Shown: positions 3,600-60,249 of the stretch, in pieces | Layout of the letters: every line of letters begins with the position of its first letter | How positions within the stretch are numbered: the stretch's first letter is position 1 | Source of the DNA: Heterodontus francisci | Lineage: Eukaryota | Direction of reading: 5' to 3' | DNA: 64,000 nucleotides | Assembly (NCBI RefSeq): GCF_036365525.1 | Contig: NC_090415.1 | Location: forward strand, 13,020,001 to 13,084,000 | Notes under the pieces: model-generated | What the model saw: only the letters and a program-made list of their open reading frames with translations | What the model was told of the DNA's origin: nothing | Database searches by the model: none | Position numbers and translations under genes: made by a program

Positions 3600-4260
3600 A
3601 CCTCATCCCTCTTTGTACCTGTCAGTTTCTGGTATGGAATAAAGATCTTTACTCTGTACCTGCTAGTTGCTGGCAAGTAATTGTGGCATCAATCCATATC
3701 TGTCAGAGTGTGATGTTACTTCAGATTTTACTCTTCAGCTGTCAGTTTCTGACATGTGAATATGGATTTTCCTCATTCTGGTCACTTACTGCAATGTAAG
3801 TCACTCCTTTATTCTGTGCCTGTCAGTTTCAGGTCTGGAAGAAAGATTTTTTTCATTACCTTTTATAATCTGGCAAGTGAATGTGAGATCACCCTGTATC
3901 TGTCAGTTTGTGACATATGACTGTGACTTTTACTCTTCACTTGTCAGTTTCTGATACGTGAATGTGTATTTTATTCTGGGTACCTGTCAGATACTAAAAT
4001 GCAAGTATGTATTCTATTCTGTTCTTGTTTGTTACTTGTAATTAATTGGAGTGTTTACTCTTGATCTGTCAGTCTCTGGAATGTGAATGTGGCTCTTACT
4101 CTGTGTCTGTCTGTATTGGATTTGCCAGCAAGTGTTTTTCTTTCCTTTCTGTTCCTGATATGTGAATGTGAATTTTACTATGTACCTCTCAGTTACTGGT
4201 ATGTGATTGTGGTTTTATTCTGTCTCCATGAGCCTATGATTAATGATTGCAGCTTGTGTC
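3600..4260. repeat. Degenerate ~41-bp tandem satellite block
   Basis: Recurring TCTGTACCTGTCAGTTTCTGATATGTGAATGTGGATTTTAC-like units (e.g. starts at 3612 and 3653). Confidence 0.7.
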
Positions 4261-4422
4261 CAAGGCATGTCAGTATCTTGTTTGCACATGCCCATTCTTA
4301 TGTGCATGTTGCTTTATGGGAAATGACTAAAGGATTTACTCTTTTTTCTGCCATATTACTTCTATGGCTTCAAGGGCTGGTCAGAGACTGGGAATTCTAT
4401 GATGAGCAACTCATGTCCTAAC

Positions 4423-6644: not shown

Positions 6645-8822
6645 GTCACACTCACTTCTCTGAAGTAAACATCTCATGAACCGTCTCCAACACATTTACT
6701 TCCTTCATTAAATAAGGAGTCCAAAACTGCACACAGTATTCTAGATGTGGTCTCACCAATGCCCTGTATAACTGAAGTACAACAGGCGTATTTTCATTTT
6801 CAATTCCTCTCGTAATACTGGATAGCATTCCATTTGCCTTCCTTCTGTCTTGCTGTAACTGCACACTAACTTTTTTGACTCATGCACTAGAACACCTAGA
6901 TCCCTCTCCAGAATTCTGCAGTCGCTCAGCACTGAAGTATTTTTTAATCTTCCTGACAAAGTGAACAACTTCCCATTTTCGCACATTGTACATCATCTGC
7001 CAGATTTCTGCCCACTCACTCAACCTACATATATCAGTCTTCAACTTCCTTATGTCCTCCTCACTACATACATTCCTACCTATCTTTGTTTCATCTGCAA
7101 ATTTAGCTGCCATGTCATCACTCCCCTCATCTACGTCATTGATATAAATTGTAAAAAGTTGAGGCCCCAGCACTCGTCACATCCTGCCAATCAGAAAAGG
7201 GCCCATTTCTTCATTCTCTGTGTTCTGCCAGCCAGTCAATCTTCTATCCATGCCAATATGTTACCCATGAGCTCCTACTTTGCACAATAACCTTTTATGT
7301 GGCAACTTGTCAAATGCCTTCTGGAAATCCAGGTACTGTCTGTCAAACAGGTTCCCCTTTATCCACAGTGCATGTTAGTCCTTCAAGGAACTTCAATAAA
7401 TAGGTTAAACATGATTTCCCCTTCACAAAACCATGTTGACTATTCCTGATGACCTTATGTTTCTCAAAATGCCCAGCTATAGCCTCCTCATCGATCAATT
7501 CTACCACCTTCCTCATGACAGGGGTCAAGCGAACTGGCCTATAGTTAATGTTAACTTTGCATCTCTCTCCACAGATGCTGCCAGACCTGAGTATTTCCAG
7601 CACTTTTTGTTTTGTTTCAAATTTCCAGCATCTGCAGTATTTTGCTTTTATATTACTGTAGTTACCCTGTCTCTGCTTCCACACCTTCTCGAATAGAGGG
7701 ATTATATTTTCTACTTTCCAGTCTGATGTAACCCAGTTCACTTCAGCTAGCTCAACTTTCATGCCCACATAGCTGTCCTTATTTAAGTTTAAAATACTAG
7801 TCTTAGATCCACTCCTCTCATTTTCAAACTGGATGTAAACCTCAATCATATTGTGATCATTGCTACCAAGAGGTGCAGATACTCTGAGGTCATTAATTAA
7901 TCCTGTCAAATTACACAATACCAAGTCTAATATAACCTGCTCGCTGGATGGTTCTAGAAGATGCTGCTCAAAGAAACTATTTCGAAAGCATTCTATGAAA
8001 TCCTCATACAGGCTTCTGTTACCAATCTGATTTTTTCCAGTTTTTATGAAGATTAAAATCACCCATGATTATTTCCATCCCTTTATCACAAGCACCCATT
8101 AGTTATTCTTGTAGACTTCATCCTACATTGTGATTACTGTCTGCGGGCCTGTAGACTACTCCCACTAGTGCCTTTTTTCCCTGACTGTTCCTCATCTCCA
8201 CCCAAACCAATTCTACATACTGATCTCCTGAACCAAGGACATGTCTAACTATTGCACTAATGCCATCCTTGATTAACAGTGCCACCCCTCCAACTTTACC
8301 TAGCTTCCTATTCTTCTTGAATGTTACACATCCCTCAATATTGAGGACACAATCCTTGTCATCCTGCAGCCATGTCTCCATAATGGCTATTAGATCATAT
8401 TTATTTACTTCAACATGTGCTATCAGTTTCTTTACTTTGTTATGAATGCTCCGTGCATTCACATACAGAGCCTTTAGTTTTATCTTTTTATCCTTGTAAC
8501 ATCTAGTGTTGACTGTTGGTCTGCTCTTAGTTTTTTTTTCCTCTGTGTCCCTTCCTGTCATTCTCTGGCTTTCATTTCCCCGGTTTCTATTCTGTTTTCC
8601 TGCCTTGACTTTATCCCTTGGTTTGTTACATCTGCTAAAGCTTGTTCCCCTCCCCCTTTGTTTAGATCAAGTACCTCTCTACATCCCTAGTTATATGGTT
8701 TTCTCGAACACTGGTCACAGCTTGGTTCAGGTATAGACTGTCCGAATGGTACAGCCTCCACTTTCCCTAGTACTGGTGCCAGTGCCCCACAAACTGAACC
8801 TGACTTCTCCCACACCAGTCTT
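6645..8822 (-). mobile_element. Decayed CR1 LINE carrying a short Penelope-terminus insertion at ~7547-7655
   Basis: LYVNARSI..METWL, VILDLVLCN, KFADETKIG, RPHLEYCVQFW; insertion flanked by CTATAGTTA/CTGTAGTTA. Confidence 0.9.
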
Positions 8823-8869
8823 GGCAGGTGTAAATTTCACTGTTAATCTCTCAATCCCTAGTCTACAAT

Positions 8870-10650
8870 TTACCTCTGTTATTTTCGGATTTTGAGTGTG
8901 GCTTTATCTGTACCTGTCAGTTTGTTTTGTGTGAGTAACGCCTTATTCAGTACCTTTCAGCTTCAGTTGTGTGTGTGTTCTGGCTTGTAATTTGTCCCCC
9001 TCAGTATATGGTATGTGAGAGTGGATTTGACAGTTAATATTACATTCTTGTGTATATGAGTGGGAGTTCAAACTTTATCTTTGATTGTCTAGTAGCCAAT
9101 TTAAGGTTTAACCTGCGCCCTTAAATGTCTCATGTGTAGCTGTGGTTTTTAACCTGTCTCTGTCACTGTCTGATATAAGAGTAAGGGTTTCAGTCTGGTT
9201 TTTGAGTGTGGATTTTCCACCACATCTCTACATTCTCTCGGATGTGAATGTGAATTTTAATCTATACATGCCAGTTTCTGACATTTGGCTGTGAGATTTA
9301 CTTTGTACATTGTCATTCTCTGATATGTGACTGACAATTTTATTCTGAACATGTCAGTTTATATTCTATCTGTGTGAGTTTTAACCTGTATCTGTCAGTA
9401 TCTGATATCTGAATCTTCTTAATTATGTTTGTGTTGCTCTGTATCTGTCAGTGTCTGAAGTGCAATTGTCAGGTTTACTTTGTACCTGTCAGTGTCTGTT
9501 GTGGATGAGAGACTTTCACTCTCTAACTGTTAACTTCTTGCAATTCATTATTGATTTCACTCTGTGTTTGTCAGTCTCTGGTAGTTAAGTACAGCATTTA
9601 TACTGTATCTCCTCATTTCTGATATGTGGATGTAGATATTAATGTGTACCTGTTGGTTTCTCCTATGAGAGTCTGGGCTAAAATCAATTTCTGCCAGTTT
9701 CTCATATGTGAGGGTGGCATTTATTCTGTACCTGTTACTGTCTGAATTGTGAGAAGGTTTTAATCTTTCTCTGTCAGTTGCTGGTATGTTAATGTGGGTT
9801 CATTCTGGATCTTTCAATCTTTGGAATTTGAGTCTGTGCTTTACCCTATTTTGTTTCTGTTAAGTGAATGAGGGATTAAATTTGTACCTGCGCATTGATA
9901 GTAAATGAATGTAGTTTTTAGTCTGTACCTGTCAGTTTATGAAAAAATGAAGGTGGTTTTATTTCTCTATCTGCCAGATTCTGATATGTGACTGTTGTTT
10001 TATTCTGTACCTGTTATTTTCTGGGATATGATTGTGGTTTTTGATCTGTATCTGTCAGTTTCTATTACTTGAGTGAGTTTTACTTTGCACCAGTTGTCTT
10101 CTGGTATGTGTGTATCGGTTTTAAGCTGGACCCGTAATGTAAAGGTAATATAGTGTGGATTATTCTGTATCTTTCAAACTCTAGTGTATGACATGGGGCC
10201 TTTCTCTGAATCTGTTGATTTCAGCTCTGTAACTGTAAGTTTTAATCTGCAACTTACAGTTCCTGATAGGTGTGTGAGCTCATTTTCTTTTCTTCTGCAG
10301 CTATCAATGTCTGGTACAGAGGATGTGTGTTATTCTTATCTTTCAATTTCTGTCATTGAAGAATTGCTTTTCCTTTGAACTTCTCAGTCTCTGCAATGTG
10401 TCCATGGGTTTTACATGGTAACTGTCTCTGTTAAGTGACTCTGGTGTGATTCTCTATCTGACAGTCTCTTGCCTGTGAGTGGTTTTATTTTCTTCTCTGT
10501 AACTGTCAGTTTCCCTTCAGTGGCTGGAGGTTTTAATCTTCACTTAAACTCTTTAATAATTTGTAAATGTGAATTTCACTCTGTGTCTGTCTGTTTATAT
10601 TATATGAATGAGTTTATTTTCATTTTGTAATCATCAGTTTCAGGTATGTG
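8870..10650. repeat. Largest block of the degenerate ~40-42-bp satellite
   Basis: TCTGTAC-like anchors at 9725, 9764, 9804 and 9922, 9964, 10004, 10045. Confidence 0.75.
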
Positions 10651-11319
10651 AGGGTGAGATTCACTGTCTCCAGGATGCACCCTCTTGTGAAATTGACAGA
10701 CTGCCTTTTAATCTGATAGTGGGTTCTGCTTTTGAACTTTACCTAACTTTCAGCAGTATTGATTTGGAATGGATTGGATACAATGTCTGTCTCTTCTGCT
10801 TTGTTTGATTGCTGAATTGGAAATGTGTCTCTGAACTTGGGATCAGTGAGAGTTTCACTACATCTGCTCCTTGTGACTATGGAATGAAATGAAGGCCTAA
10901 AGGAGTGGTACTGTACCTTGTCAGTGATGGAAGGAGCCGACTGCACTTTCCCTTGTTCCTGGGAATCATCACATTCATTCTGCTCCCTTGAACTATTCAC
11001 CGACAGTAAGGAAGAAAACTATGTATTGTAAGTCACGAGCAGTTGAGGTGGAAGCTGGAAAAGAGATTAATGTAACATTTCAATTAATAATCATTATGAC
11101 TAATCACAAATGCTAACCAGAAATACAAAGAATATCACTGTCTGATTCCACTGCAGCTCTCAGCATCTGCTGACGAGGTGTCCTGGCAGTTCCATAACAA
11201 TTTTGAGACATCCAGAAACAAGCCAACATCTACACTGCTCCAAGGTTGGAACGATCTGATGGAGCAGGGATATTTGTGCAGGTCAGCTTTCTATTTCCAT
11301 CTGGCATTATAATATAATG

Positions 11320-11935
11320 ACCCAAGAACTAGGAGCATGAGTAAGCCATTCAGCCTCTCGCGCCTGATCCACCATTCAATAAGATCATGTCGAATTTGAT
11401 CTTGGCTTCATTTCCATTATCCTGCCTGGCCAATAACCCATTACTCCCTTGTAGATCAAAAGTTTAACTCATCCTTGAATATATTTCATTTTCCAGCCCC
11501 CACTACTCTCTGGTGCAGAGAATTCCATCGATTAATGACGCTTTGAGAGAAGAAATTCTTCCTTACCTCTGTCTAAAATGGTAGACCCCTTATTCTGAAA
11601 CTGTGCAACGTGGTTCTTGATTCCCTCAAGAGGGGAGTCATCTTCTCAGCATCTACTCTGTCAAGACCCCTCAGAATCTTACACTTTTCAATAAGATTAG
11701 CTCTGATTATTACGAACTCCAATGAGTGTAACACAACCTGCTCAACCTTTTGCTCATAAGACAGCCTCTTCATCTCAGGAACCAACTGAACGAATCTTGC
11801 CTGAACTGCATCCGATGCACATATGCACGAAGGAGACCACAACTGTATCCACTATTCCAGGTAATGTCTCACCAACACCCCGCAAATTTGTAGCAAAACT
11901 TTCCTCCATTTATATTCCAGCCCCCTTGCAGGTAA
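11320..11935 (-). mobile_element. CR1 LINE 3' fragment
   Basis: DAVQARFVQLVPEMKRLSYE..ILRGLDRVDAEK and CR1 tail; duplicated at 16295-16875. Confidence 0.85.
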
Positions 11936-12024
11936 TGTCAAAAGTTTTCACTATTCACTTTTCAATAACAACAAACAGCGTGAAACCGGAGCTAAACCAG
12001 GAACAAGCATTACAGGTTTGAGAA

Positions 12025-13832
12025 GCAATTTTTTTGTTCATTACTTCTGCCATTTCCTTATTACCAAACTTGAACTTCCAATTTACATTCTCAACACTCA
12101 CTTTACTTACACTTTTCTTTTTCAAATGCCTGCAGAAACCCTTGCTATCCGTTATTGCATTTCCAGCCAGCTTACTCCCATGCTCTAATTTCTTTGCCCC
12201 TGATTAACCTTTGGTCAGAATATATAGAATGGCACAGAATGACTCAATCATCTGACCTACCACTCATCTTTGCACAATTCTCTGCCTTTTCATTCAGGTT
12301 GATGCCTTCCTTAACTTCTTTAATCAACCATGGATGGAAGGTCCTCCCCTTGGAATTATTCTTTACAGTAGGGATATACTTATTTTAAGTATTCTGAAAT
12401 ATCCACTTAAATGTCTGCCACTGCTTCTCAATTGATCCCAGTTCACTTCAGCTAGCTCAGCTTTCATGCCCACATAGTTGTCCTTATTTAAGCTTAAAAT
12501 ATTAGTCTTAGACCCACTCCTCTCACTTTCAAACTGGATGCAAACTTCAATCATATTGTGATCATTGCTACCAAGAGGTGCATTTACTCTGAGGTCATTA
12601 ATTAATCCTGTCAAATTGCACAATGTCAAGTCGAGCAAGTTCTAGAACATGCTGCTGGAAGAAACTATCTCGAAAGCACTCTATGAACTCCTCATACAGG
12701 CTTCTATTACCAATCTCATTCTTTCCAGTTTATAATTATTTACTTTAGACATACAGCACTGAAACAGGCCCTTCAGTCCACCGAGTCTGTACCAACCATC
12801 AACCACCCATTTATACTAATCCTACATTAATCCCATATTCCTACCCCATCCCCACCTTTCCTCAATTCTCCTATCACCTACCGAAACTCGGGGCAATTTA
12901 TAATAGCCAATTTACCTATCAACCTGCAAGCCTTTGGCTGTGGGAGGAAACTGGAGCACCCGGCGAAAACCCACAGAGTCACAAGGAGAACTTGCAAACT
13001 CCGCACAGGCAGTACACTGAATTGGACCTGGGTCGCTGGAGCTGTGAGGCTGCGGTGCTAACCACTGTGTTGATTAAAACACCTGTGTTTCTTTCCATCT
13101 CATTATCACAAGCACCCAATAGATATTCTTGTATCCTTCATCCTAAATTGTGATGACTGTCTGGGGGCCTGTAGACTGTTCCGACTAGTGCCTCTTTCCC
13201 CGACTAGTCCTCATCTCCACTCAAACCGATTCTACATCCTGATCTCCTGAACCAAGGTCATGTCTAACAATTGCACCAATACGATCCTTGATTAACAGTG
13301 CCAAACATCCACCTTTACCTCGCTTCCTATTCTTCTTGAATGTTACATATCCCTCAATATTGAGGACCTAATCCTTGTTATCCTGCAGCCATGTCTCCAT
13401 AATGACTATTAGATCATATTTATTTACTTCAACGTGTGCTATCAGTTCCTCTACTTTGTTATGAATTCTACATGCATTCACATAAAGAGCCTTTGGTGTT
13501 ATCTTTTTGTTATCTTTGTCACATCTAGTGTTGACTGTTGGTCTGCTCTTAGGTTATTTCTCTCTGCCCCTTCCTGCCCTTCATTTCCCATATAACTATT
13601 GTGTTCTCCTGCCTTGACTCTACCCCTTGATTTGTTACATCTACTAAAGCTTGATGCCTCTACCCCTTTGTTTAGATCAAGTACCTCTCTACATCCCTAG
13701 TTATATGGTTTTCTCGAACACTGGTCCCAGCTTGTTTCAGGTGTAGACTGTCCAAACGGTACAGCCTCCACTTTCCCTAGTCCTGGTGCCAGTGCCCCAC
13801 AAACTGAACCTGACTTCTCCCACACCAGTCTT
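12025..13832 (-). mobile_element. Decayed CR1 LINE (5' ORF2 part) interrupted by a V-SINE
   Basis: LDLTLCNLTGLINDLRVNAPLGSNDHNMIE; paralogous to 7730-8822. Confidence 0.85.
12736..13069 (-). mobile_element. V-SINE (HE1-like), near full length
   Basis: tRNA-like head, V-domain and CR1-like tail; absent from the paralogous site near 8050. Confidence 0.88.
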
Positions 13833-13879
13833 GGCGGGTGTAAGTTTCACTGTATATCTCACTCCCTGGTCTACAATTT

Positions 13880-15630
13880 ACCTCTGTCAGTTTCAGTTTT
13901 TGAATGTGGCTTTATCTGTACCTGTCAGTTTGTTTTATGTGAGAAACGTCTTATTCAGTACCTTTCAGCTTCTGGTGTATGTGTATCTGCCTTGTACTTT
14001 GTTCCCATCAGTATATGGTATGTGATTGTGGATTTGACACAATATTACATTCTTGTGTATATGAGTGGGGGTTCACACTTTATCTTTGATTGTCTAGTAT
14101 GCCAATTTAAGGTTTAACCTGTGACCTTAAATGTCTAATGTGTAGCTGAGGCCTTGAACCTGTCCCTGTCTGGTATAAGAGTAAGAGTTTCAGTGTGGAT
14201 TTTACACCACATCTCTCCACGCTCTCGGATGTGAATGTGATTTTTAATCTGTACATGCCAGTTTCTGACACTGGCTGTGAGGTTTACTTTGTACATTGTC
14301 ATTCTCTGAAATGTGACTGCCAATTTTATTCTGAACCTGTCAGTTTTTTTTTCTCTGTGTGTGAGTTTTAGCCTGTATCTGTCAGTATCTGGTATATGAA
14401 TGTTCTTAATTATGTGTGTGTTGTTCTGTATCTATCAGTGTCTGAAGTGCAATTGTCAGGTTTACTTTGTACCTGTCAGTGTCTGTTATGGATGAGAGGC
14501 TTTCACTCTCTGTTAACTTCTTGCAGTTCATTATGGATTTCACTCTGTGTCTGTCAGTCTCTGGTAGATAAATGTGGCAGTTATACTGTATCTCCTAATT
14601 TCTGATATGTGAATGTAGATTTTAATGTGTACCTCTTGGTTTCTCCTATGTGAGTCTTTTTACAATCTGTTTCTGCCAGTTTCTCATATGTGAGGGTGGC
14701 ATTTATTCTGTACCTGTTACTTTCCGAAATGTGGGAAGAATTTACTCTTTCCCTGTCAGTTGCTGATATGTGAATGTGAGTTTATTCTGGATCTTTCAAT
14801 CTTTGGAATTTGAGAACATGCTTTACCCTATATCTGTTTGCTTCTGTTAAGTGAATGAGGGATTAAATCTGTACCTGTCCATTGATAGTAAATGAATGTA
14901 GTTTTTAGTCTGTACCTGTCAGTTTATGGAAAATGAAAGTGGATTTATTTCACTCTCTGACAGATTCTGATATCTGACTGTTGTTTTATTCTTTACCTGT
15001 TATTTTCTGGGATATGATTGTGGTTTTTGATCTGTACCTATCAGTTTCTGTTACTTGAGTGTTACTTGCACCAGTTGTCTTCTGGTATGTGAGTGTCAGT
15101 TTTAAGCTGCACCTGTATGATAGGTTAAACCCTAAGGTATGATATTGTGGGTTTATTCTGTGACATGGGGCCTTTCTCTGAATCAGTCGATTTCTGCTCT
15201 GTAACTGTACGTTTTAATATGCAGCTTACAGTTCCTGATAGGTGTATGAGCATATTTTCTTTGTACGCAGTTATCAATGTCTATTACATGAGGATGTGTG
15301 TTATTCCTAGATTTCAATTTCTGTTATTGAAGAAGAGATTTTCCTTTGTACTTCTCTGTCTCTGCAATGTGTCCATGTCTGTTACTGGTAACTGTCTGTC
15401 TCTGTTAGGTGACTCTGGTTTTATTCTCTATCGGACAGCCTCTTGCCTGTGAGGGGTTTTATTTTCTTCTCTGTATCTGTCAGTTTCCTTTCTGTGGCTG
15501 AATGTTTTAATCTTGACTTGAACTTTTTAATAATTTGTAAATGTGAATTTCACTTTGTGCCTGTCTGTTTACATTATATGAATGTGTTTATTTTTATTTT
15601 GTCAACATCAGTTTCAGGCATGTGAGGGTG
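13880..15630. repeat. Degenerate ~41-bp satellite block (duplicate of 8870-10650)
   Basis: Same unit, colinear with copy A. Confidence 0.75.
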
Positions 15631-16294
15631 AGATTCACTGTCTCCAGGATGCACCCTCTTGTGAGACTGACAGAGTGCCTTTTAATCTGATAGTGGGTTC
15701 TGCTTTTGAACTTTACCTAACTTTCAGCAGTATTGATTTGGAATGGATTGGATACAATGTCTGTCTCTTCTGATTTGTTTGATTGCTGAATTGGAAATGT
15801 GTCTCTAAACTTAGGATCAGTGAAACTTTGACTACATCTGCTTCTTGTGACAATGCCATGAACTGAAGGCCTATGGGAGTGGTACTGTACCTTGTCTGTG
15901 ATGGAAGGAGCCGACTGCACTTTCCCTTGTGCCTGGGAATCATCACATTCATTCTGCTCCCTTGAACTTTTCAACGACAGAAAGGAAGAAAACTATGTCT
16001 TGTAAGTCACGAGCAGTTGAGTTGGAAGCTAGAAAAGAGATTAATGTAACATTTCAATTAATAATCATTATGACTAATTACAAATGCTAACCAAAAATAC
16101 AAAGAATATCACTGTCTGATTCCACTGCAGCTCTCAGCATCTGCTGACGAGATGTCTTGGCAGTTTCACAACAATTTTTGGACATCCAGAAACAAGCCAA
16201 CATCTACACTGCTCCAAGGTTGGGACGACCTGATGGAGCAGGGATATTTGTGCAGGTCAGGTTTCTATTTCCATCTGGCATTATAATTTAATAA

Positions 16295-16875
16295 CCTAAG
16301 AACTAGGAGCAGGAGTCAGCCATTCAGCCTCTCCAGCCTGATCCACCATTCAATAAAATCATGTCTGATTTGATCTTGGCTTCAGCTCCATTATCCTGCC
16401 TGGCTAAAAACCCATTACTCCCTTGTAGATAAAAAAATTAACTCATCCTTGAATATATTTCATCATCCAGCCTCCACTGCTCTCAAGGGTAGAAAATTCC
16501 ATAGATTAATGACACTTTGAGAGAAGAAATTCTTCCTTACCTCCGTCTAAAATGGGAGACCCCTTATTCTGAAACTGTACGGCGTGGTTCTTGATTCCCT
16601 CGAGGGGAGATATCTTCTCAGCATCTACTCTGTCAAGACCCCTCAGAATTTTACACTTTGCAATAAGATTAGCTCTGATTATTACAAACTCCAATGAGTG
16701 TAACACAACCTGCTCAACCTTTTCCTCAAAGCGCAACCTATTCATCGCAGGAAGCAACCGAACGAACCTTGCCTGAACTGCATCCAATGCGAAGGAGACC
16801 ACAACTGTATCCAATACTCCAGGTGAGGTCTCACCAACAACTGACGTTTATATTCCATCCCCCTTGCAATAAATG
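16295..16875 (-). mobile_element. CR1 LINE 3' fragment
   Basis: LDAVQARFVRLLPAM..KILRGLDRVDAEK. Confidence 0.85.
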
Positions 16876-17019
16876 CCAACAGTCCGGCTCTGTTTTCACT
16901 ATTCACTTGTCAATAACAACAAACAGCGTGAAATAGGAGCTAAACCACGAACAAGCATTACAGGTTTGAGGAGAGAAAACAGCCATGAATTTCAACAGCA
17001 GCTTCTTCACCTTTTGTCT

Positions 17020-17400
17020 CACTTACGCAGTGCACACGCAGCCCAAGAAATGCCTCTGCCTTCCGCCGCTCACTCCATGTTACCGGATCACTTCCTGCCT
17101 CACTCTGTCTCTTGCAAACAACTCGCAACCCTCCTGAACTTGCCCCAAAGTCAATGACGATCTCTGAGCCAGATTGCGGACAAGTTTCCCCAAACAAAGT
17201 GCTGCTGGAAGGAGACTGCTGTTTGCTGACTTACCCCGATACTGTAATATCTCCATTCCCTCTGTTAAAAACAAACGCTTTCCCCTCTTTGAATAAATGC
17301 CGTTCAATGGCCTTGCAGGCACAGGGGAGCGCATGCGCTCAGTCGGTCAACAACTCTCAAAGGTGTGGGCGGGGCTTTACCGCGCATGCGCTTCTTTCGG
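17020..17400 (-). promoter_or_regulatory. CpG-rich promoter-like region with candidate first exon of an unannotated transcript (unit 1)
   Basis: GCGCATGCGC at 17329 and 17382, GC box at 17367, ETS-like CACTTCCTG at 17089, minus-strand ATG at 17256 with GTAAGT donor at 17234, second GTAAGT at 17026. Confidence 0.55.
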
Positions 17401-17924
17401 CAACGCTTTGAAAAACAAAAATACAAACAATTGGAACTTTATTCAGTTCAGTTTTATCACATTGTGAGCGATGGAACAGGGGCTGCGGGTAAGATAGAGA
17501 AGGTTCACATCTGGGAGATTACCCCTTTATAAAGTTCAATTTGAGATTATTCTCTGCAGTATGTTTGCCCAGTTTCTCAAAGCAATCCTTGGAGGGAGTC
17601 GGTGTGTTTGCTGGGATCGCGCAGGATTTAATATCTGACAGTAACAGTCCTAGATTCATGTAATCACATTGAAAATGTCTGTCACTGAGTGTCAGAGCGA
17701 ACGGTTCGAGCTGAAACATTGCAGAGACCTCAACAGGGCAGAAAAAAAGTTACATTTGGGACATTGTGTGACTCACTTTCGGACACGTCCTCAGATTGTG
17801 AGATTAATAATGTGGCTGCTTGTGGCACCATATAAGTGAGAGATAAGTTTGTATCGTCGGTCTCCCCGGGTGGATCTTTCGAGATAAAACGAATCTGACA
17901 TTTCAGCCCACAACTCAATAATTA

Positions 17925-20890: not shown

Positions 20891-21883
20891 AAGTGAATAC
20901 ATATCTCTCTATCTCACCATCCTCCAAGCCTCTCCCCCAATCCAGATCTTTCTCTCTCTCTGCCTTTTTCTCGCTATTGATGCTGTCTCTCTCCCTCTGC
21001 CTTTGGTGCTGTATCTATGTTGGAGATACAGTTACTAAGTGTTATATGTATGCATTCTATTGTAGTACTGATAGTCTCTCTCTCTGAATATTCAGGTGAA
21101 GGTGAAATACTGTTATTCAGTGTGAAAGGGACACACAGTTGGAAATTGTAAGACTGAAACGGTCTGTCTCCTTCCCTCTCTCACCCCTCTCTCTCTTTCA
21201 CTCTCCCTCTCTCTGTCGCTCTGTTGTTGTATATGAAAGAGGAATGAAGTTATTGAGCGTGTTATGGACACGCTGAAGAGACGTACGGTATTGGAACAGT
21301 GAACACGCCACCGGTGCCGCAGGTGAGACGGTCACTGTCACTTCTCCGCTCGGATGTTCGAATCTGACGGTGTGTTTATCTGTCTTCAGTCCTGAATCTA
21401 AGCACGGAGAGAACCAGCCTGTCACTGCCTGGAACAAAATAAAAACACTGTGTATGAATGTGGGATTATTGTGCAACTGGACGTCTCTCCTTGAGAATGG
21501 GATGTCTAGGACACCTAGAAAAAAATATGGATGGAATGTAGGGACAGACAGGGCATAATTTGTATTTTCACCGTCAGGAAACATGCTTGTGTGTGATCAA
21601 TATAATAACATCAAAGCCGATATTGGTTTGAACAGATTCAAAGCTGTGATTGGCTCTTGACGCCAAATCTGGGAAACAGACAACATTCGCAGCGCCAGTC
21701 TCAGAGTGTTTAACACTTGCTGAGCCTAGAAAATGCAAATACCCACCGTGAATCCGCAGCACAGGCCGAGCGGAGGGGAAATCCTGTCCTGGAAACGCTA
21801 AATTTAACGACCTGAGATTGTGTGGATGTGAATATTGTGGAAGAGAGTGTATTAAAGGGGCGGGCGCGTTAGTCTAATGCCAC

Positions 21884-22310
21884 TGTGTTTGTGGGTCTGG
21901 TCTCATCGCCGGATTTCCGAGTCCCTCTTGCGTAAAATAACAAGATTTTCCAGTCAAAGAAGCACTTTGCTCCCCTTCTAATCCTCAAAGTGGGAATTCA
22001 GTGTTGTTTGTTTGTTGATTTCAAGATTTTAGTCGAAAAGTATGGAACATGTCAGCGATCGGCTGAGAGAGAGTCATCAGTGCAGCAATGAAACGGGTTT
22101 CAGTCGAAAATGGAGTCTTTACTTCAAGCGAAACCTTTGTGACAGCAAACATTCTGATGTCAGAGACAGGAAGGATCTAGCCTGGGACTCTGGAATACCC
22201 GAATTTCAGTGGAATTGGAGAGTTTAGGACCAGAGAGAAACACAGAGAGGCAGCAGGAGCCGGGAGCTGACAGCAGGTTGTCTCCGCCCCGTCCGCTCGC
22301 TGCCTTTAAG
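21884..22310 (+). promoter_or_regulatory. H1 promoter: TG box, H1/AC box, GC box and weak TATA-like element
   Basis: TGTGTTT 21884-21890, AAACACA 22238-22244, CCGCCCC 22284-22290, TTTAAG 22305-22310. Confidence 0.7.
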
Positions 22311-22388: not shown

Positions 22389-23102
22389 ATGACCGATACT
22401 GCAGCCGCCGAAACGGCTCCTCCAGCCGCCGCCGCTCAAGTCAAGACTCCCAAGAAGAAGAAAGCGGCTCCCCGGAAGGGGTCATGCGGTCCCAAGTTGG
22501 GCGAGCTGATCCTCAAGACTGTGGCGGAATGCAGTGTCCGCAGTGGGATGTCACTGCAGGCAATAAAGAAGGCTCTGCGTGTTAAAGGTGTCGATGTGGA
22601 GAAGGGCAAGTTCCAAATCAAGCAAAGTATCAAGCGGCTTGTGGCGAAAGACTTCCTGGTGCAGACGAAGGGCACGGGGGCGTCCGGCAGCTTCAAAATC
22701 GCGAAACAGGAAAAGAAGGGAAATGTGGTGAAGAAGATTAAGACAGGAGCAGCCAAGAGATCTTTAGTGAAGAAAACAGCTGCCAAGAAACAGATAACAA
22801 AGAAAACAGCCAAGAAATCCCCAGGGAAGAAAATAGTCGCCAAGAAAGTGAGCAGCAAGAAGACAGCAGCCAAGAAAGTGAGCAGCAAGAAGACAGCAGC
22901 CAAGAAAGTGAGCACCAAGAAGGCGGCAACGCCAAAGAAGGCGGTAAAGAAAGCAACGCTTCCAAAAAAATCTCCAGCGAAGAATGCCAATAAAGCCAAG
23001 AGGGCCACGGGCGGAAAGCCGCCCAAGAAAGTCCAATCATCAAGGGGCGGGAAGAAGCCGAAAGCAGCAAAGGCTCAGAAAGCAGCTCCTGGAAAGAAGT
23101 GA
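22389..23102 (+). CDS. H1: Linker histone H1, 237 aa, replication-dependent, divergent globular domain
   Basis: ATG 22389 (MTDTAAAETAPP); LVQTKGTGASGSFK motif; K/A-rich tail with S/TPxK motifs; stem-loop downstream. Confidence 0.96.
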   Translation: MTDTAAAETAPPAAAAQVKTPKKKKAAPRKGSCGPKLGELILKTVAECSVRSGMSLQAIKKALRVKGVDVEKGKFQIKQSIKRLVAKDFLVQTKGTGASGSFKIAKQEKKGNVVKKIKTGAAKRSLVKKTAAKKQITKKTAKKSPGKKIVAKKVSSKKTAAKKVSSKKTAAKKVSTKKAATPKKAVKKATLPKKSPAKNANKAKRATGGKPPKKVQSSRGGKKPKAAKAQKAAPGKK

Positions 23103-23138
23103 AACAGCACGGGAAACCTGTAGACATCTGAACCCAAA

Positions 23139-23179
23139 GGCTCTTTTCAGAGCCACCCACGTCTCTCAGGAAAGAGCTG
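23139..23179 (+). terminator. H1 3' stem-loop and U7 downstream element
   Basis: GGCTCTTTTCAGAGCC 23139-23154, ACCCA, then AAAGAGCTG at 23171. Confidence 0.95.
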
Positions 23180-23689
23180 ATCCGCCGATCAAATGATCCC
23201 TGTCCCGCAGTCGTGTGCACATTTCACCTAGAAATGATTTGAAGTAAATCCAGGTTCCCTGGTGACTCTCAACCCAGCCCTTCCTCACTCTCTGCAACAA
23301 ATCAGGGATGTCCGGGCCTCACTGTACCCGGGTATATGTTCGGTGAAGTCTCAGTTCATGCTCGTTTCAGGGTGACAGCCTGTAACACAGTAACACGGGC
23401 GAGATACCCCACGTCACATCTCAAACTCCAATACATGATTTTGTATAATTCAGCTGGGGTTCGGTTTCAGTAAACTGCTCAATCCGTCTGGGAGGAGAGG
23501 TGTGCGGAAACAGGTTGACTTGTGATCGGAAGCACTGCACTTAGGCGGGTGTATTACGAACTTTTAATTGTAACAGATCCTTATTTAAAGCGCTAATTTC
23601 TGTTATCTGTGACTATCAATGCCGAATCTCCAGGTTTTATGCTGAGCTCTAATGTCGAGAACTGTTTTTTCTTGAATTGGCGGTTCGAG

Positions 23690-23815
23690 CAAGTGGGAGG
23701 CGGAGCGAGAGGATCAAAGACATTTCTCTGCTCTGTCTGTCACTCAGTTTCCTCCAGACCCGCCTCTGGCTCTCTGTCTCTTTCTCAGTCAGGTCGGGGC
23801 AGGCTGTATAAAAAG
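23690..23815 (+). promoter_or_regulatory. H4 promoter
   Basis: GC-rich boxes, site II-like TCAGTCAGGTC at ~23785-23795, TATAAAA 23807-23813. Confidence 0.65.
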
Positions 23816-23860
23816 GCAGCAGAAACTACTCGTTTCTCATTCAGAATTAGGTTTGTCTGA

Positions 23861-24181
<321 letters not shown>

Positions 24182-24211
24182 ACAAATCGACCTTGTCTAC
24201 CAAAAACAAAA

Positions 24212-24227
24212 GGCTCTTCTAAGAGCC
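24212..24227 (+). terminator. H4 3' stem-loop
   Basis: GGCTCT-TCTA-AGAGCC followed by ACCCA. Confidence 0.93.
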
Positions 24228-24389
24228 ACCCAAAACCTCACATAGAGATAACTGACCTTGAAACTAAAACGGGGATGTCTTGGGATGTGAAATTGTTGGA
24301 GCTCATCCAATGTTATGTGGACTTTATCAGATCAGTATTGAATTCTCTTATAGTCACTTCACGTCTCGCACATTTTTTCACTTTCTTCT

Positions 24390-24733
24390 TCTGTTCCATG
24401 TTTAATAACCGCGTCATGAATTAAAAGGTTGCATTTGATAATGTCCATTGCCGACCTGAACTGCCGGTAAAGATGCAGAAAAGGATTTACTCCCGTTAGA
24501 GTAAGAAATGGCCGGAGCTTTATTCCCGCCAGAGACCGAACAGGGAATGAACCCCTATTCAAACCGTGTTGGAAGACACAGAGGGGAATCTAGGGCGGAT
24601 AAAAATGACGCTAAAAGCAATGAGATTTTATAATCGGTCCCGCCAAATTAGGTTTTCTTTAATCTTTGCGTCGTTTATAATTTGAAAATGGCGGGCTTTT
24701 TGAAATTGATTCAATTTCAGTTGCAGTTCAACC
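24390..24733 (+). repeat. Duplicated copy of the H3 upstream region, truncated at the distal CCAAT box
   Basis: Colinear with ~25715-26046; breaks at CAACC|GG into a CR1 fragment. Confidence 0.85.
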
Positions 24734-25715
24734 GGATGTTGCCGGGACTGGAAAAAATGCAGCTATGAGGAAAGATTGAATGGTCCGTGGTTGTTCTCTG
24801 TGGCACAGAGAATGCTGAGGAGAGATCTGATTGAATTGGATAACATTTTGAGAGGCCTGGATAGAGTGTAGGTGAAGGGCCAATTTACCTTCATACAGAG
24901 GTCACTGACTAGGGGTCAAAGACTTAAAGCGTTTGGTAGAATAATTAGAGGGAAGATGAGGACAAGGTTTTTTTCCCCCTCTCATCTAGAGGATGGTGGG
25001 GGTCTGGAACTCAATGCCTGAAAGGGTAGTTGAGGCAGAAATCTTCAAATGATTCAAAAGAAGTCTGGAAATGCACCTCAAGTGCATATTCTACAGGATT
25101 ACAGACCAAATGCTGGCAGGTGGGATTAGAATGGGTGGAGAGCTTTCCGGCTGGCACAGACACGATGGTCCAAGTGGCTTCTTTCTGTGCCATAAACTTT
25201 CAATTATTTTCAGAAAAGAGAAGGCTGAGGGGGGACATGATTGAGGTATCCAAAATTATGAAGGTCATTGATAGGTTAGACAGGAATAAACTTTTTGTTT
25301 TTCCTTTGCGGAGGGATCAATAAGTAGGTAAGGGGCAGGAGGTTTAATGGAGATGTGAGGGGGAAAGAAACACTCATCATGTGGTTGGAATCTGGAACAC
25401 ACTGCCTGAATAGGTGGTAGAGGCAGGAACCCTCACAACATTTAAGAGGTATTTAGATGAGCACTTGAAACGCCATAGCATACAAGAATACGGGCCAAGT
25501 GCTGGAAAATGGGATTAGAATAGTTAGATGCTTGAAGAAATACTTGCAGGTTTATAGGTCAATTGCCCCTAGTGTAGGTAGATGGTAGGAGAATGGTGGG
25601 GATGCCGTAGGGAATATGGGATTAATGGAGGATTGGTATAAATGGGTGGTTGTTGGACGGCACAGACTCGGTGGGCCGAAGGGCCTGTTTCTGTGCTGTG
25701 TAACTCCATGACTCT
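24733..25715 (+). mobile_element. Patch of two CR1 3' fragments and a truncated V-SINE
   Basis: GGATGTTGCCGGGACTGG..AGCTATGAGGAAAGA, EKRRLRGDMIEV, and SINE tail at 25660-25715. Confidence 0.82.
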
Positions 25716-26001
25716 CTGTTTAGTTATCGCGTCATGAATTAAACGGTTGCATTTGACAATGTCCATTGACGACCTGAACTGCCGGTGAAGATGCAGGATT
25801 TATTCCCGTTAGAGTAAGCAATGACCGGAGCTTTATTCCCGCCTGAGACCCAACAAGGAATGAACCCCAATTCAAACCGTGTTGGAAGAAACGGAGGTGG
25901 AATCGAGGGCCGAAAGATGAAGCTCCAAGCAGTGAGATTTTATAATTGTTCCTGCCGAATTAGGTTTTATTTAATCTTTCAGTAGTTTGCTAATTTGAAA
26001 T

Positions 26002-26160
26002 TGGCGGGCTTTTTGAAATTGATGAAATTTCAGTTGCAGTTCAACCAATCAGGGAGCAGCAATTCCCACCGCCCTTTTCCATCCTTTCAAATTGGATGAT
26101 GGACGGGGCTTCATCCAATCACAACATTAGGGCGGTCCTTCGACTGTCTTAAATAGGCAG
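26002..26160 (+). promoter_or_regulatory. H3 promoter: CDE/CHR-like element, CCAAT boxes and TATA-like TTAAATA
   Basis: TGGCGG-GCTT-TTTGAA 26002-26017, CCAAT 26045 and 26115, ATTGG ~26090, TTAAATA ~26149. Confidence 0.7.
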
Positions 26161-26210
26161 TCCCTGAGCAGCTTCAGCATTAAACGTGACATTGTGTAAG
26201 GTCTCCGTAG

Positions 26211-26624
<414 letters not shown>

Positions 26625-26667
26625 ACTGACCCTGCCCGGAACTGAGTTCGGCATCAAATACCACATC

Positions 26668-26710
26668 GGCTCTTTTAAGAGCCACAAAATGGACAAAAGA
26701 AAGAGTTGTG
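26668..26710 (+). terminator. H3 3' stem-loop and downstream element
   Basis: GGCTCTTTTAAGAGCC 26668-26683; AAAGAGTTG at 26701. Confidence 0.94.
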
Positions 26711-26930
26711 ATCTCTTGTTCATTCCAGCACATAAACGTCTCAGAAGGTTTTGACCACATATTTACTCAAAACCGGGAAACACAAATGCGTTTGTCTGCA
26801 TTCCGAATATGGTCTGAGGCAATTTGAATGCATTTCATCTTTTGAGCAACTAAATACCAAAATCCAGTACACTTCATTCCAACACAAAACAATGATAACT
26901 GTATAATATTACAGTCTCTCAGACAGTAAC

Positions 26931-26971
26931 GAGCCCTTTCACAGATAAAGTGGGTGGCTCTGAAAAGAGCC
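26931..26971 (-). terminator. H2A 3' stem-loop and downstream element
   Basis: Minus-strand GGCTCTTTTCAGAGCC (26956-26971) then GAAAGGGCT. Confidence 0.94.
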
Positions 26972-27001
26972 TTTGGGTTCACAGATTCAAGTCAGGCCGC
27001 T

Positions 27002-27650
<649 letters not shown>

Positions 27651-28233
27651 TATTTGTAAAACAAGGGGCGGCTTCAATATAGAATATCACATTTATAGGT
27701 TATATTGTTTTACAGAAAACATTGCAAAAATATTTTCATTTTTTTATTCCACATTTTGTCCCAGATTCGCTTTTGTCATCCGCCATGTATTCTGCTTTAT
27801 TCTTTTTCATGATACAGTCTAACCAGCGGCTGAAAGACTCATTCACAGCATTTTGTAACCGGACACATTTCAGGTCAATCTTCGTAATTATACTGTCTCA
27901 CTGATTATAGATTGATCCCTTTTCGTGGGAGACAAAAGCGGAGTATAGATTTTCAGTGTCACCGGTTAGAGACTGAGGGTGCCTAAACCAACGGGGTTTC
28001 TTAATGTGCTTATTCGTAAAGATAGCCAAACTTCAACACGGCAACCAAGTAACTGAGAACATCTTTAAATCATGCGTTAAATCAGCTTTCATTTTCGAAA
28101 TATAGCAAAGGGGCCGAATGAATCTGTATTAACATGAACTGACCGGATTTAAACAGAGATTTACAACCGCCATCAAAAATTTGCAGAGTATTCGTATTAA
28201 CATAAAAAGAATTCGATAATCATGATGATGTTG

Positions 28234-28274
28234 TAGCTATTTCAGAGAAGTTGTGGGTGGCTCTTAAAAGAGCC
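28234..28274 (-). terminator. H2B 3' stem-loop and downstream element
   Basis: Minus-strand GGCTCTTTTAAGAGCC (28259-28274) then GAAATAGCT. Confidence 0.93.
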
Positions 28275-28312
28275 TTTTTTGTATATTGTGTTTTTCAGTC
28301 CATGGCGGATAT

Positions 28313-28693
28313 TTACTTGGAGCTGGTGTACTTGGTGACCGCCTTTGTACCTTCTGACACGGCGTGTTTGGCCAGCTCCCCGGGCAGCAGCAGGCGCACG
28401 GCGGTCTGGATCTCCCGGGAGCTGATGGTGCTGCGTTTGTTGTAATGGGCCAGGCGGGAAGCCTCACCCGCGATTCGCTCGAAAATATCATTCACAAACG
28501 AATTCATGATGCTCATGGCCTTGGAGGAGATGCCGGTGTCAGGGTGAACCTGCTTCATCACTTTGTACACGTAGATGGAGTAACTTTCTCTCCTGGATCT
28601 TCTACGTTTCTTGCTGCCCTTCGTTGGCGCCTTCTTCTGAGTTTTCTTGGCGCCTTTCTTGGAAGGTGCTGCTGTTTTCTTGTCATCAACCAT
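28313..28693 (-). CDS. H2B: Histone H2B, copy 1 (126 aa)
   Basis: ATG at 28693; [41 protein letters not shown]. Confidence 0.98.
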
Positions 28694-28744
28694 GATCGCG
28701 ATCAACTTCAGACACAGAATAACCGAAATTTCGCTCCAAGCTCG

Positions 28745-28835
28745 CATTTTATAGACATCCCCAGAAACCTATGCTAATGCAGGATGGGAGAAGACCATGC
28801 TCATGATTGGCTGGTTTACAATGATGTCACTGCCT
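28745..28835 (-). promoter_or_regulatory. H2B proximal promoter: TATA, octamer variant, CCAAT and CRE-like site
   Basis: TATAAAA (minus) 28747-28753, ATGCTAAT 28771-28778, ATTGG ~28806, TGATGTCA 28822. Confidence 0.8.
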
Positions 28836-29789: not shown

Positions 29790-30780
29790 TTCCCTGCAGG
29801 ACATGTGAGTGTGGGTTTCATTCTGTGCCTATCAGTATGTGATATTTAACTGTGGCTTTTACTCCGTATCTGTCAATCTATGGTCAATGATTTTGTGATT
29901 TAATTCAGTAATTTCAATCTTCAATAGGTGATTCTGTTTTTTTTTCTTTCTCTGTAACATTCAGTTTCTAAGTGGATGATTATGGGTTTTGTTCTGTACC
30001 TATGAGCTTCTACTGAGTGAGTGTGGGTTTTGTTATGCATCTGTTAATATCTGATTTTGGAGTCTGGGCATTTCTCTTTATCTGTCAATTTCTGAATTGT
30101 GAATTTGGATTTTAATCTGCACCTGTCAGTTTCTGGGATGAAAGGTTGTTTGATTTTGTCTCTGTATCTGTTAGTAAGTGGCATTTTTGTGTAGCTTTAC
30201 ACTGCACATGTTAATTGATGACATGTCAGCATTGTTTTCACTCGACATGTCAGTCTCTGGTTTGGAGGCCTCACCTGTGTTCTGTCCCCATCAGACGTCT
30301 TCATATAAGGATGGGTTTTAACCTGTTCCTTTCAATCTGTTGTATGTAAGTACTGTTTATTATCTGTATCTGTAAGTTTCTGATGAATGAATGTGGACTG
30401 TATCACGTCCCTGTCAGTGGTTCATTAAGAGATATTTTACACTGTACCTGCCTGTTCTGATATGTGAGTGTGGGTTGTGATCTACGGCTGGCCGTTTCTG
30501 GTATGAGACATGAGCATTGTTTTTACTCTGTGCATGTTAGCCTCAAGTGCAGAAGCTGGGTTTAATAGTACTGCTCACTCTCTGCTGTATGATTATGGAT
30601 TTTCATCTGGACAAGTTAATTTCTGGTACGGGCATGTGAATTTTATTCTCTATGCCAATTTATGGTATGTGATTATGTGTTCTTTCTGTTCTGTCAGTTT
30701 CTGCTGAACTGTATGGTGGATTTGCTTTCAATCTGCCAAGTTCTGCGATGTGAATGTTGGTATTACTTTGTATTTGTCAT
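29790..30780. repeat. Degenerate ~41-bp satellite block
   Basis: Same unit; unit 1 lacks ~780 bp of this block (junction near 690). Confidence 0.7.
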
Positions 30781-30789
30781 CGAGAGATA

Positions 30790-31365
30790 GAGTCATAGAG
30801 TTATACAGCACAGAAACAGGCCCTTAGACACATTGATGGCCGGCACAGGCACAATCAGTGATCTATTCTAATCCCATTTTCCAGCACTTGGCCCATAGCC
30901 TTGTATGCTATGGCCTTTCAAATGTATATCTAAATACTTCTTAAATGTTGTGTGGGGTCCTGCCTCTACCACCCCTTTCAGGTAATGTGTTCCAGATTCC
31001 AACCACCATCTGGGTAAAAATGAAATTTAAAAAAAAAATCCTCAAATCCACTCTAAACCTCCTGCTGAGGCCTCCTGCTGAGGTTAAATCATGGCTGATC
31101 TGTTTCTGACTTGAATTCCACACTCCTATCTCCTCCCAATAATCTTTGATTCCCTTGCCGAACAAGAATCTATCAAGACCTGTCTCACCAAAGCCCCGTA
31201 TAACTGAAGCATAACATCCTTAGATTAATTTTCAATTCCTGTTGTAATAAAGGATAACTTTCCAATTGCCTTTGTGATTTGCCATACCTGCATACTAACT
31301 TTTTGTGACTCAAGCACAAGAACACCTGGATCCCTCTGCACCTCAGAATTCTGCAGTCATTCTCC
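30790..31365 (-). mobile_element. CR1 3' fragments
   Basis: Tail orthologous to 840-1095, followed by pieces of another CR1. Confidence 0.75.
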
Positions 31366-31367
31366 GC

Positions 31368-31556
31368 AGATACTCAGCAGGCCTGCCAGCATCTGTGGAG
31401 ACAGAAACAGAGATAACCATTCAGGTCAATGGTCTTTCATCAGAAAGGTCCGTTCTGATCGAAGGTCATTGACCTGAAATGTTAACTCACTTTCTCTCTC
31501 TACAGGTGCTGCCAGACTTGCAGATTATTTCCAGCATTTTCTGTTTTTATTTCCAC
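31368..31556. mobile_element. Head-to-head Penelope-terminus palindrome (orthologue of 5537-5776)
   Basis: TTCAGGTCAATGGTCTTTCATCAGAA-AGGTCCG-TTCTGATCGAAGGTCATTGACCTGAA. Confidence 0.7.
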
Positions 31557-32334
31557 TGTACATCGTATATTCTGGCAAATGAATGTGGGATTAATCTTTA
31601 ACCTTTGGTTTCTGATATGCAAATGTGGATTTTACCTAGCATGTTGTCAGTTACTGCAATGCAAATATCTGTTTTATTCTGTAACATTTTGTTTGTGGTA
31701 ATTGATTGTGGGTTTTACTCTGTATCTGCCACTCTCTGTAATGTGAATGTGGCTTTTGTCTGTGCATGATTTGTGAGTATGTGTTTTACTTTCCCTGTAT
31801 GTTTCTCAATGTGGATTTTGCTATGTACCTCAGTTACTTTATGTGTATATGTTGTATTCTGTTTCTGTGCATGTATGGTGAGTGTAACATTTCCCCTGTA
31901 TCTATCAGAATCACTCTTGTGAGGATGGTCATTATTCTGTACATGTTGGTTTATGGTAGTGCTTGATTTACACTTTTACGGTCACTCTCTGATATGCTAC
32001 TATACAGTTTACTCTGCACTTGTCAGATTCTGCTATGTGATATTGTCTTTTATCTATCTGTCTGTGTCTGGTATCCTATTGCAAGTTTTACAGTACACCC
32101 ATCAGCTTCTGGTATTTAAGTATGAGGTTCACATTGTATCTTTCATCTTGTTGTGTGTGAATCTGCTTCTGCCTTGAACTGACAGTTTCTACTCTGTGAG
32201 TGTACATTTGAAGGGTGCTTGTGAATTTCTGCTAAATAGATGATAGTTTTACTCTGTGCATGTCAGTCACTGCAATGGGAAGTTGGGATTCATGCTGTAT
32301 CTGCCATTTGATTTATTGATCTATTCTGGTTTTT

Positions 32335-36400: not shown

Positions 36401-36464
36401 TAGACAGTCTTGGAAAGTCTGCCATGTCTTGATTATTCAGCCATTTTTTTTCCGCCATTCATAG

Positions 36465-36689
36465 TCAGGTACAGTTCCAAACAGGCCCTTCAGCCCATCG
36501 AGTCCATGTTGACCATCAACCACCCATTTATACCAATCTATATTTATCCCATTTTTCCCTCTAATGTCCCCACTATTTTCCTACAACATACCTACACCAG
36601 GGGCATTTTTTTTTTTTACAAATGGCTAATTTACCCATCAACTTGCAAGTCATTGGCATGTGGAAGGAAACCAGAGCACCCAGCGGAAA
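36465..36689 (-). mobile_element. V-SINE fragment
   Basis: Tail plus part of the V-domain. Confidence 0.75.
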
Positions 36690-36834
36690 TTCTGTCTCTC
36701 TCTCCCTGTCCAGACAGTGCCCGAGAAAGACCTCTCCCTTTCACCTGGATCACTCCATGTTCCGGGTCCAGTTCCTGCTTCACAGTGCATATTACAAACA
36801 GTCCCCCAGTCCCGCTGAATTAGCAATAGTAGAC

Positions 36835-40800: not shown

Positions 40801-40944
40801 TATATGTAAGTTACTGATACTGTGTCTGTATATTTGATTCATTCCTGATCTGTGAGGCTCTGGCACCCTGGTTGAGTGTAGGATTCACTCTGCATCTATG
40901 TGTCTTTGTGCTGTATGTGAGTTGAGATCCTGCTGTATTCAGGA

Positions 40945-42030: not shown

Positions 42031-42148
42031 CTCACCTGGTCCCTTCAAATCTGCCGCATCTTTATTGTTCAGACTTTTTTTTTCTGCTGTTCACTATCCA
42101 ATAACAATAAATAGTGAGATACTGGATCTGAACCAGGAACATTTATTA

Positions 42149-59634: not shown

Positions 59635-60249
<615 letters not shown>

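Follow-up and report, generated by a model that had tools for sequence, protein, structure and literature searches.

Promoter and first two exons of a probable multi-copy spliced non-coding RNA in shark histone repeats

Histone repeats are generally regarded as containing intronless histone genes only, at most with rRNA passengers. What, then, is a CpG-rich, non-histone segment doing head to head with H1 in a shark histone repeat? The window analysed here, a 64-kb stretch on contig C45 of a 6.0-Gb genome, spans about one period of a higher-order repeat. It contains a quintet in the order H1(+), H4(+), H3(+), H2A(-) and H2B(-) at 22389-28747, with a stem-loop on each gene, and an H2A/H2B pair at 59635-61403 with stem-loops on both. 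The H1 gene of the quintet faces the segment of interest, here called unit 1; a related copy, unit 2, lies elsewhere in the window. A preliminary description had proposed that every histone repeat unit carries a sixth, intron-containing transcription unit, either a spliced gene or a lncRNA. The reading that we favour, and consider reasonably probable, is that unit 1 supplies the promoter, exon 1 and exon 2 of a spliced non-coding RNA, present in many copies and co-amplified with the histone repeats, and that selection likely acts on both promoter and transcription, not on the RNA sequence.

The segment at 17020-17400 is indeed a CpG-rich island, as described. Its observed/expected CpG ratio was 0.75, whereas the flanks had 0.26 and 0.13 and the window as a whole 0.39; its GC content was 0.53. 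CpG islands are delimited by a CpG ratio above 0.6, a GC content above 50% and a length of at least 200 nt, and the segment lies above all three thresholds (0.75, 53% and 381 nt). The NRF1-type palindrome GCGCATGCGC is present only three times in the 64 kb: twice in unit 1 (17329-17338 and 17382-17391, no strand assigned) and once, at 42655, upstream of the unit 2 ATG. Between the two unit 1 palindromes lies an SP/KLF-type GC box (17374-17367, minus strand). On the minus strand unit 1 reads ATG GAG ATA TTA CAG TAT CGG G/GTAAGT (17256-17229) and unit 2 reads ATG GAG ACA TTA CAA GCC TGG G/GTAAGT (42593-42566), such that ATG, spacing and GTAAGT donor agree within promoters that are 62% identical. 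The motifs themselves had been noted beforehand, and each was confirmed at the position given.

The bare ATG-N19-GTAAGT pattern has a third match in the window, at 49585, that lacks an NRF1 site; the spacing may therefore arise by chance, but the composite does not. A composite running from the NRF1 site to AATGGAGA gave 205 exact matches in the genome, and one joining AATGGAGA, GGGGTAAG and CAAACA gave 292; the reversed-pattern control was 0 in each case. The first 100 places listed fell on contigs C21, C28 and C45; the 292 matches lie mostly in the histone arrays of one contig. When the segment at 16950-17450 was used as a query, the 40 scored among 1146 candidates comprised 36 matches at 93-100% within C45 8.8-14.1 Mb, one at 86% and three at 80%. 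The copies form four subfamilies, 62-82% alike. Subfamily a is unit 1, head to head with H1; a distant form of it is 82% identical, subfamily b (unit 2) 62% and subfamily c 63%. All four have in common the pair of NRF1 sites upstream, the two ATGG elements, the first donor, exon 2 and the repeats that follow. In unit 2, the promoter and exon 1 occupy 42331-42760 (minus strand), for which all 40 genome matches scored were at least 96% identical, and an 84-nt exon 2, CAG/GCAAAC ... TAG/GTACAG, occupies 41582-41665 (minus strand). A partial duplicate of unit 2 at 35938-36820 (minus strand) retains the end of exon 1 (36820-36689) and exon 2 (36021-35938), without the NRF1 part. Many copies of the family are damaged by insertions, deletions or partial duplication. 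Many subfamily c copies carry within exon 1 a GC-rich element with hAT-like features (C45:18326900-18327100), and a frame that by eye resembles a hAT transposase lies near subfamily c copies.

Within type-a copies the ATG was kept in 30/30 near and 29/30 distant copies, and the first GT in 29/30 and 30/30, respectively; the single 86% copy had lost both. The upstream palindrome was kept in 30/30 near copies and in 8/10 columns across the four subfamilies, the downstream palindrome in 9/10 columns across subfamilies; the GC box was exact in 27/30 near copies and kept 3/8 columns across subfamilies. The ATG at 17256 lies within AATGGAGA (17250-17257, minus strand), an 8-nt run invariant in all four subfamilies. 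This run has a presumed likeness to the YY1 motif, and we infer from the sequence that it would be a YY1-like promoter element rather than a start codon. The first donor, GGG/GTAAGT (17229-17237, minus strand), is a conserved putative U1-binding site that keeps 8/9 columns across subfamilies; GGGGTAAG, at this donor, is invariant in all four and among the best-kept sites. Finally, an ETS-like CAGGAAGTG and AACATGGAGTGAGC occupy 17068-17097 (minus strand), likely a second, stronger start region; no run invariant across subfamilies is longer than AACATGGAGTGAGC (14 nt).

Taken together, the promoter motifs and first U1 site were better kept than background, a comparison that the preliminary description had proposed for the ATG, donor and NRF1 positions: 31/40 columns of the named motifs were invariant across four subfamilies versus 227/488 background columns (Fisher p 2e-4), in a test that is biased because the motifs had been picked as shared ones. 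Motif by motif, NRF1 kept 17/20 columns, and the GC box (3/8) and ETS site (5/9) were not above background. In human promoters, according to the accessible text of a recent preprint, direction is set by YY1 and U1 motifs that lie downstream of the start and show conservation at that place (10.1101/2023.06.27.546584). By analogy, AATGGAGA and GGGGTAAG may be promoter-proximal elements. The folding of exon 1 was not unusual (z 0.77). A block of 60-70 nt recurs, in matching orientation, at 21873-21946 (+), about 520 nt upstream of the H1 start, and at 43135-43062 (-); the copies are 73-81% identical, and in subfamilies b and c the block precedes the ATG by about 540 nt. We rejected an origin of the unit from the H1 promoter, since outside this block nothing aligned (z -1.0 to 1.7) and the positive control was clear.

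Is the unit transcribed? Contigs from four of six likely-RNA runs were placed on 13900-17750 at 85% likeness, the histone genes lying outside that stretch. Three runs (X1, X2 and X4) represent one sample of organism A, and X3 comes from organism B in a separate study. Such contigs reveal neither strand nor start nor level, the joints listed are 15 of 28, and the junction sides are 22-30 nt; owing to these short sides and the 85% likeness, no junction is assignable to the unit 1 copy or to this species. At the level of the family, the predicted transcription was borne out: spliced contigs with canonical minus-strand junctions came from likely-RNA runs of both studies, as expected of a transcribed and spliced multi-exon lncRNA. 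The joint 16028-17011 skips 982 nt, reads CT..AC on the plus and so GT..AG on the minus strand, and had a depth of 349, 364 and 131 in X1, X2 and X4. Joints 15968-17010 and 15968-17026, with five letters between their sides, fit copies with the acceptor TAG/GCAAAT and donors 17011 and 17027. In X3, the joint 15966-17048 (depth 82) carries 34 bridging letters, which correspond to a paralogous exon 1 end and the acceptor TAG/GCAAAT. The longest form of exon 1 accordingly spans 17011-17333 (minus strand), with donors used at 17011/17010 and 17027/17026, and is followed by an intron 1 of 982 nt with GT..AG ends (16029-17010, minus strand) that contains a LINE fragment.

The expected junction leaving the first donor at 17235 did not appear among the 15 of 28 joints listed. 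Instead, the donors were those at 17011 and 17027, and two contigs, both about 90% paralogues, read through 17235 (X4 record 32, 17054-17333, and an X2 record, 17054-17270). The used donors keep 2/9 columns across subfamilies, unlike the first donor. One X1 joint, 17094-17187, ends at the AG before 17094 and may represent an upstream mini-exon in some copies.

Contig depth was 813/734/79/45 in the four runs in the bin 16996-17124 and 41/36/22/194 in the next bin upstream (17125-17253), which a junction from 17235 would make intronic, lower still in bin 17254-17382 (3-13, compared with 22-194), and 0-2.4 over 17383-17750, approximately zero upstream of the NRF1 sites. As the latter stretch is part of the same repeat and yet nearly blank, the runs behave like RNA and unlike genomic DNA. 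Cover ended near 17333 and stepped up near 17100 in contigs that by their nature cannot show starts; the furthest 5' contig end among the records listed, 17333, falls inside the downstream NRF1-type palindrome. In the intron, the bin 16093-16221 had depths of 11, 21, 9 and 0, and the LINE-derived bins were high and uninformative. A 391-nt contig covers exon 1 and extends another 110 nt. The long forms of exons 1 and 2 together measure 442-458 nt, above 200 nt. Summed depth in the exon 2 bin 15835-15963 was 2041/1042/1145/28 in the four runs. In X1 the cover dropped from 2041 to 111 at the exon 2 donor, and no joint from exon 2 back into 13900-17750 was found among the joints listed. A further exon outside that stretch is therefore likely, and it could be coding.

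Exon 2 of unit 1 (15891-16028, minus strand, 138 nt) contains the 84-nt core common to the family (15974-15891) and ends at AAG/GTACAG, a putative donor. Its acceptor AG at 16030-16029 was kept in 30/30 near copies. The common acceptor survives in only 3/30 near copies, but the substitute at 16028 is present in 30/30, indicating that splicing persists while its boundaries move.

Neither exon showed a conserved coding frame. Over the 84-nt core of exon 2, in six related sequences, pN/pS was 0.96, 0.87 and 1.13 in the three frames, and 13, 12 and 15 of 28 columns each varied by codon position; the H2A control for this test gave a pN of 0.035 and a pS of 0.106. Exon 2 was no better kept than its flanking introns (identity 0.63-0.87 versus 0.69-0.89). 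Weak tests for protein relatives found none: one exon 2 frame, at 61-196 aa, yielded no candidate, and neither the 28 candidates for another frame (161-2000 aa) nor the 95 for an alignment of five sequences (78-2000 aa) reached E 1. Pfam gave three matches for 107 stop-free minus-strand frames of at least 36 aa, all below cut-off. A coding gene starting at the ATG at 17256 was rejected: no frame that begins at this ATG is conserved, its continuation through exon 2 measures 33 or 58 codons in unit 1 depending on the donor, and frames and lengths, read by hand, differ in subfamilies b and c. Of the two forms first proposed, only the lncRNA agrees with these results. The frame from an ATG at 15954 within exon 2 is open to the donor in 5/6 representatives, and a short coding start is therefore possible. 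Rfam found no match to E 0.1 in 8900-17800, and so no known small RNA for which the unit might be a snoRNA or microRNA host gene; over the 64-kb window it reported histone stem-loops and one weak tRNA-like match only, and ARAGORN found 0. It is likely that the RNA encodes no protein, and likely also that the act of transcription among the histone genes is kept, rather than the product.

Downstream of exon 2 lie degenerate A-rich repeats of about 41 bp (13900-15700, minus strand), in which AATAAA occurs 10 times on the minus and 0 times on the plus strand. Continuous contig cover over them was low (0-45 in organism A, 9-125 in organism B). Further tracts of such repeats were seen at 8900-10800, 3600-4400 and 29800-32300. 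AATAAA was counted 6 versus 0 times on the transcribed versus the opposite strand in 8900-10800, and 0 versus 2 times in 40000-41500. The repeats also carry AG/GTAC on the transcribed strand, AGGTAC being a match to the exon 2 donor, with 8 minus-strand and 0 plus-strand occurrences in each of two A-rich tracts. A tandem duplicate of exon 2 (10917-11054, minus strand) lies inside an 88%-identical 4-kb duplication (8051-12025 against 13072-16973), and unit 2 has its own duplicate of the exon 2 region (35777-36820 against 41000-42435, 84-88%). Since both units possess such a duplicate, exon 2 could be used twice in one RNA.

How is the unit arranged with respect to the histone genes? The 294 kb around the window contain 10 promoters (2 of them internally deleted), all on the H2A/H2B strand, and a second array on C45 at 17.4-17.6 Mb contains 10 in 200 kb. 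Hence the proposal of a sixth unit per histone repeat survives in part: the unit is minus-strand, intron-containing, non-histone, directed away from H1 and array-wide, but it does not occur once per quintet. It is a non-histone unit co-amplified with histone genes, and is neither a 5S rRNA nor an rDNA cistron, Rfam having found no rRNA family in the 64-kb window. Most H2A genes of the first array have TACAAGG (27460-27445 in the window) where second-array copies have TATAAAT, and from sequence the first-array TATA box is possibly weakened. In one unit of the second array (C45:17430001-17630000) the TATA region of H2B passes directly into the stem-loop, the coding part missing as if excised cleanly.

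The orientation of the promoters raises an alternative that we think unlikely, namely that they are far-upstream alternative promoters, with exons 1 and 2 serving as a 5' leader that splicing would join to H2B or H2A across 13-33 kb, yielding histone mRNA outside S phase. Indeed, all 10 promoters in the window's array point at a same-strand H2B (7) or H2A (3), 13.6-33 kb away, exon 2 seems to be spliced to something outside 13900-17750, and H2B 5' UTRs contain a possible weak acceptor, TTATTCTGTGTCTGAAG. However, orientation towards H2B or H2A is automatic in a head-to-tail array. Furthermore, no H2B match was found within the 200 kb of the second array, where the first thing faced is an intact H2A for three promoters, an H2A fragment for one and a convergent unit of the same kind for six; copies outside the arrays lead into satellite DNA; no fusion protein was found in the weak tests above; and no contig placed on 13900-17750, which contains no histone gene, showed a junction into one.

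The dispersed copies bear on a second alternative. The preliminary description had asked whether the unit is always linked to histone clusters, and this was not the case: among seven dispersed loci, three had no histone gene in 60-70 kb, three lay by a lone H1 and one by H2B (an eighth stretch, 10 kb on C50, was too short to judge and was left out). Six of the seven run into satellite arrays, and the dispersed copies look like pieces of array moved by segmental duplication, not transposon insertions. Those on C21 adjoin very long satellite arrays with units of 29 bp (about 48 kb) or 42 bp and 171 bp. Downstream of one dispersed copy of subfamily b, at 16 and 37 kb and on its strand, are two frames that by eye look GPCR-like. 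The unit might be a passenger left over from the 5' part of a coding gene since lost (e.g. a zinc-finger gene), caught in the histone repeat, amplified with it and transcribed without function. That exon 2 evolves like an intron, that so many copies are damaged and that the lengths of exon 2 (84, 93 and 138 nt) are each divisible by three would suit this idea. We nevertheless consider it quite improbable: the promoter motifs outlast 37% divergence, splicing is kept despite the change of acceptor, the two arrays, over 494 kb, contain no C2H2 motif, there is no Pfam remnant, and no intact parent gene was found at the seven dispersed loci.

LTRs often carry NRF1/SP/ETS-type promoter motifs. About 300 copies on several contigs might suggest an LTR or another transposable element that brings its own promoter, but this reading is largely refuted and very improbable, because homology between subfamilies extends from about 550-750 nt upstream to more than 2.5 kb downstream, over intron, exon 2 and degenerate repeats, and is broken by differing LINE and SINE insertions, the position of copies with respect to H1 and H2A/H2B is constant on three contigs, kilobases of array flank accompany the dispersed copies, and the ORFs between copies are LINE-, Penelope- and hAT-like by eye, with no gag/pol/env-like frame.

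A co-amplified non-coding RNA, the reading that we prefer, suggests the following model. NRF1, SP and ETS sites would open a TATA-less CpG promoter, and the two YY1-like elements together with the U1 site at 17235 would set its direction away from H1. Most molecules would start near 17100 and fewer near 17330, and would be spliced at donors and acceptors that shift between subfamilies. The AATAAA-rich repeats may then end part of the transcripts before H2B/H2A. The unit could serve to maintain, within every histone repeat unit and its load of transposons, an island that stays open to Pol II independently of the cell cycle. A more specific and doubtful proposal is that it acts as a second housekeeping-type promoter of the shark histone repeat, either supplying a leader over 13-33 kb into H2B/H2A outside S phase or holding the array open for the histone locus body. 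We know of no description of such a control layer for vertebrate histone clusters.

Transcription of newt lampbrush satellites has reportedly been linked to histone clusters. The shark unit resembles newt satellite read-through in producing RNA from repeat-rich spacer DNA, but newt read-through, as the accessible text has it, results from failed termination of upstream genes, whereas the shark unit is spliced, is directed away from H1 and carries a promoter of its own (PMC5615363, PMC12046345). The accessible part of a histone review describes quintets interspersed with rRNA genes, namely 5S genes in Artemia and Mytilus and the rDNA cistron in the boll weevil (PMC13525598). There, too, the histone unit is repeated together with a non-histone unit whose activity presumably does not depend on S phase; the shark passenger differs from rRNA in being a spliced RNA of Pol II type that has a CpG promoter of its own. 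The words 'shark' and 'noncoding' each have 0 occurrences in the main text of that review as accessible. In the stingray, histone clusters lie beside tRNA clusters, according to the accessible text (10.1101/2025.06.08.657570). Our literature search, in which subscription journals were thinly covered, found no description of such a unit in shark histone arrays.

As regards its promoter, TATA-less vertebrate promoters are described in the accessible text as carrying NRF1, SP, ETS, CREB, YY1 and U1 motifs and tending to ubiquitous activity, and the shark unit shares with them the bidirectional NRF1/SP/ETS motifs and the downstream YY1 and U1 motifs that give direction; it differs in being present in about 300 copies in tandem histone arrays and in being known from its sequence motifs (10.1101/2023.06.27.546584). 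The retention of the promoter while exon sequence and splice sites drift is like that of lncRNAs conserved in the act of transcription, although those, in the text available, are single-copy mammalian orthologues from a pipeline that removes duplication clusters (10.1101/031385). Spliced, polyadenylated mammalian replication-dependent histone mRNAs likewise tie splicing to histone loci and to expression outside S phase; in the accessible text their intron follows the stop codon and they use a histone promoter, whereas the shark exons lie at least 13 kb upstream of histone genes, have their own promoter and are only candidates for a histone join (PMC5100578).

These results raise a question about the shark histone locus. 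A spliced RNA with a promoter of cell-cycle-independent type, in about 300 copies and several old subfamilies, asks how always-on and S-phase genes share a locus, a question that, in its accessible text, a recent review leaves open for rRNA-linked arrays (PMC13525598). Should the leader join H2B or H2A, it would represent a new way of making replication-independent histone mRNA. If the unit is a passenger, it would still account for a class of unannotated shark transcripts.
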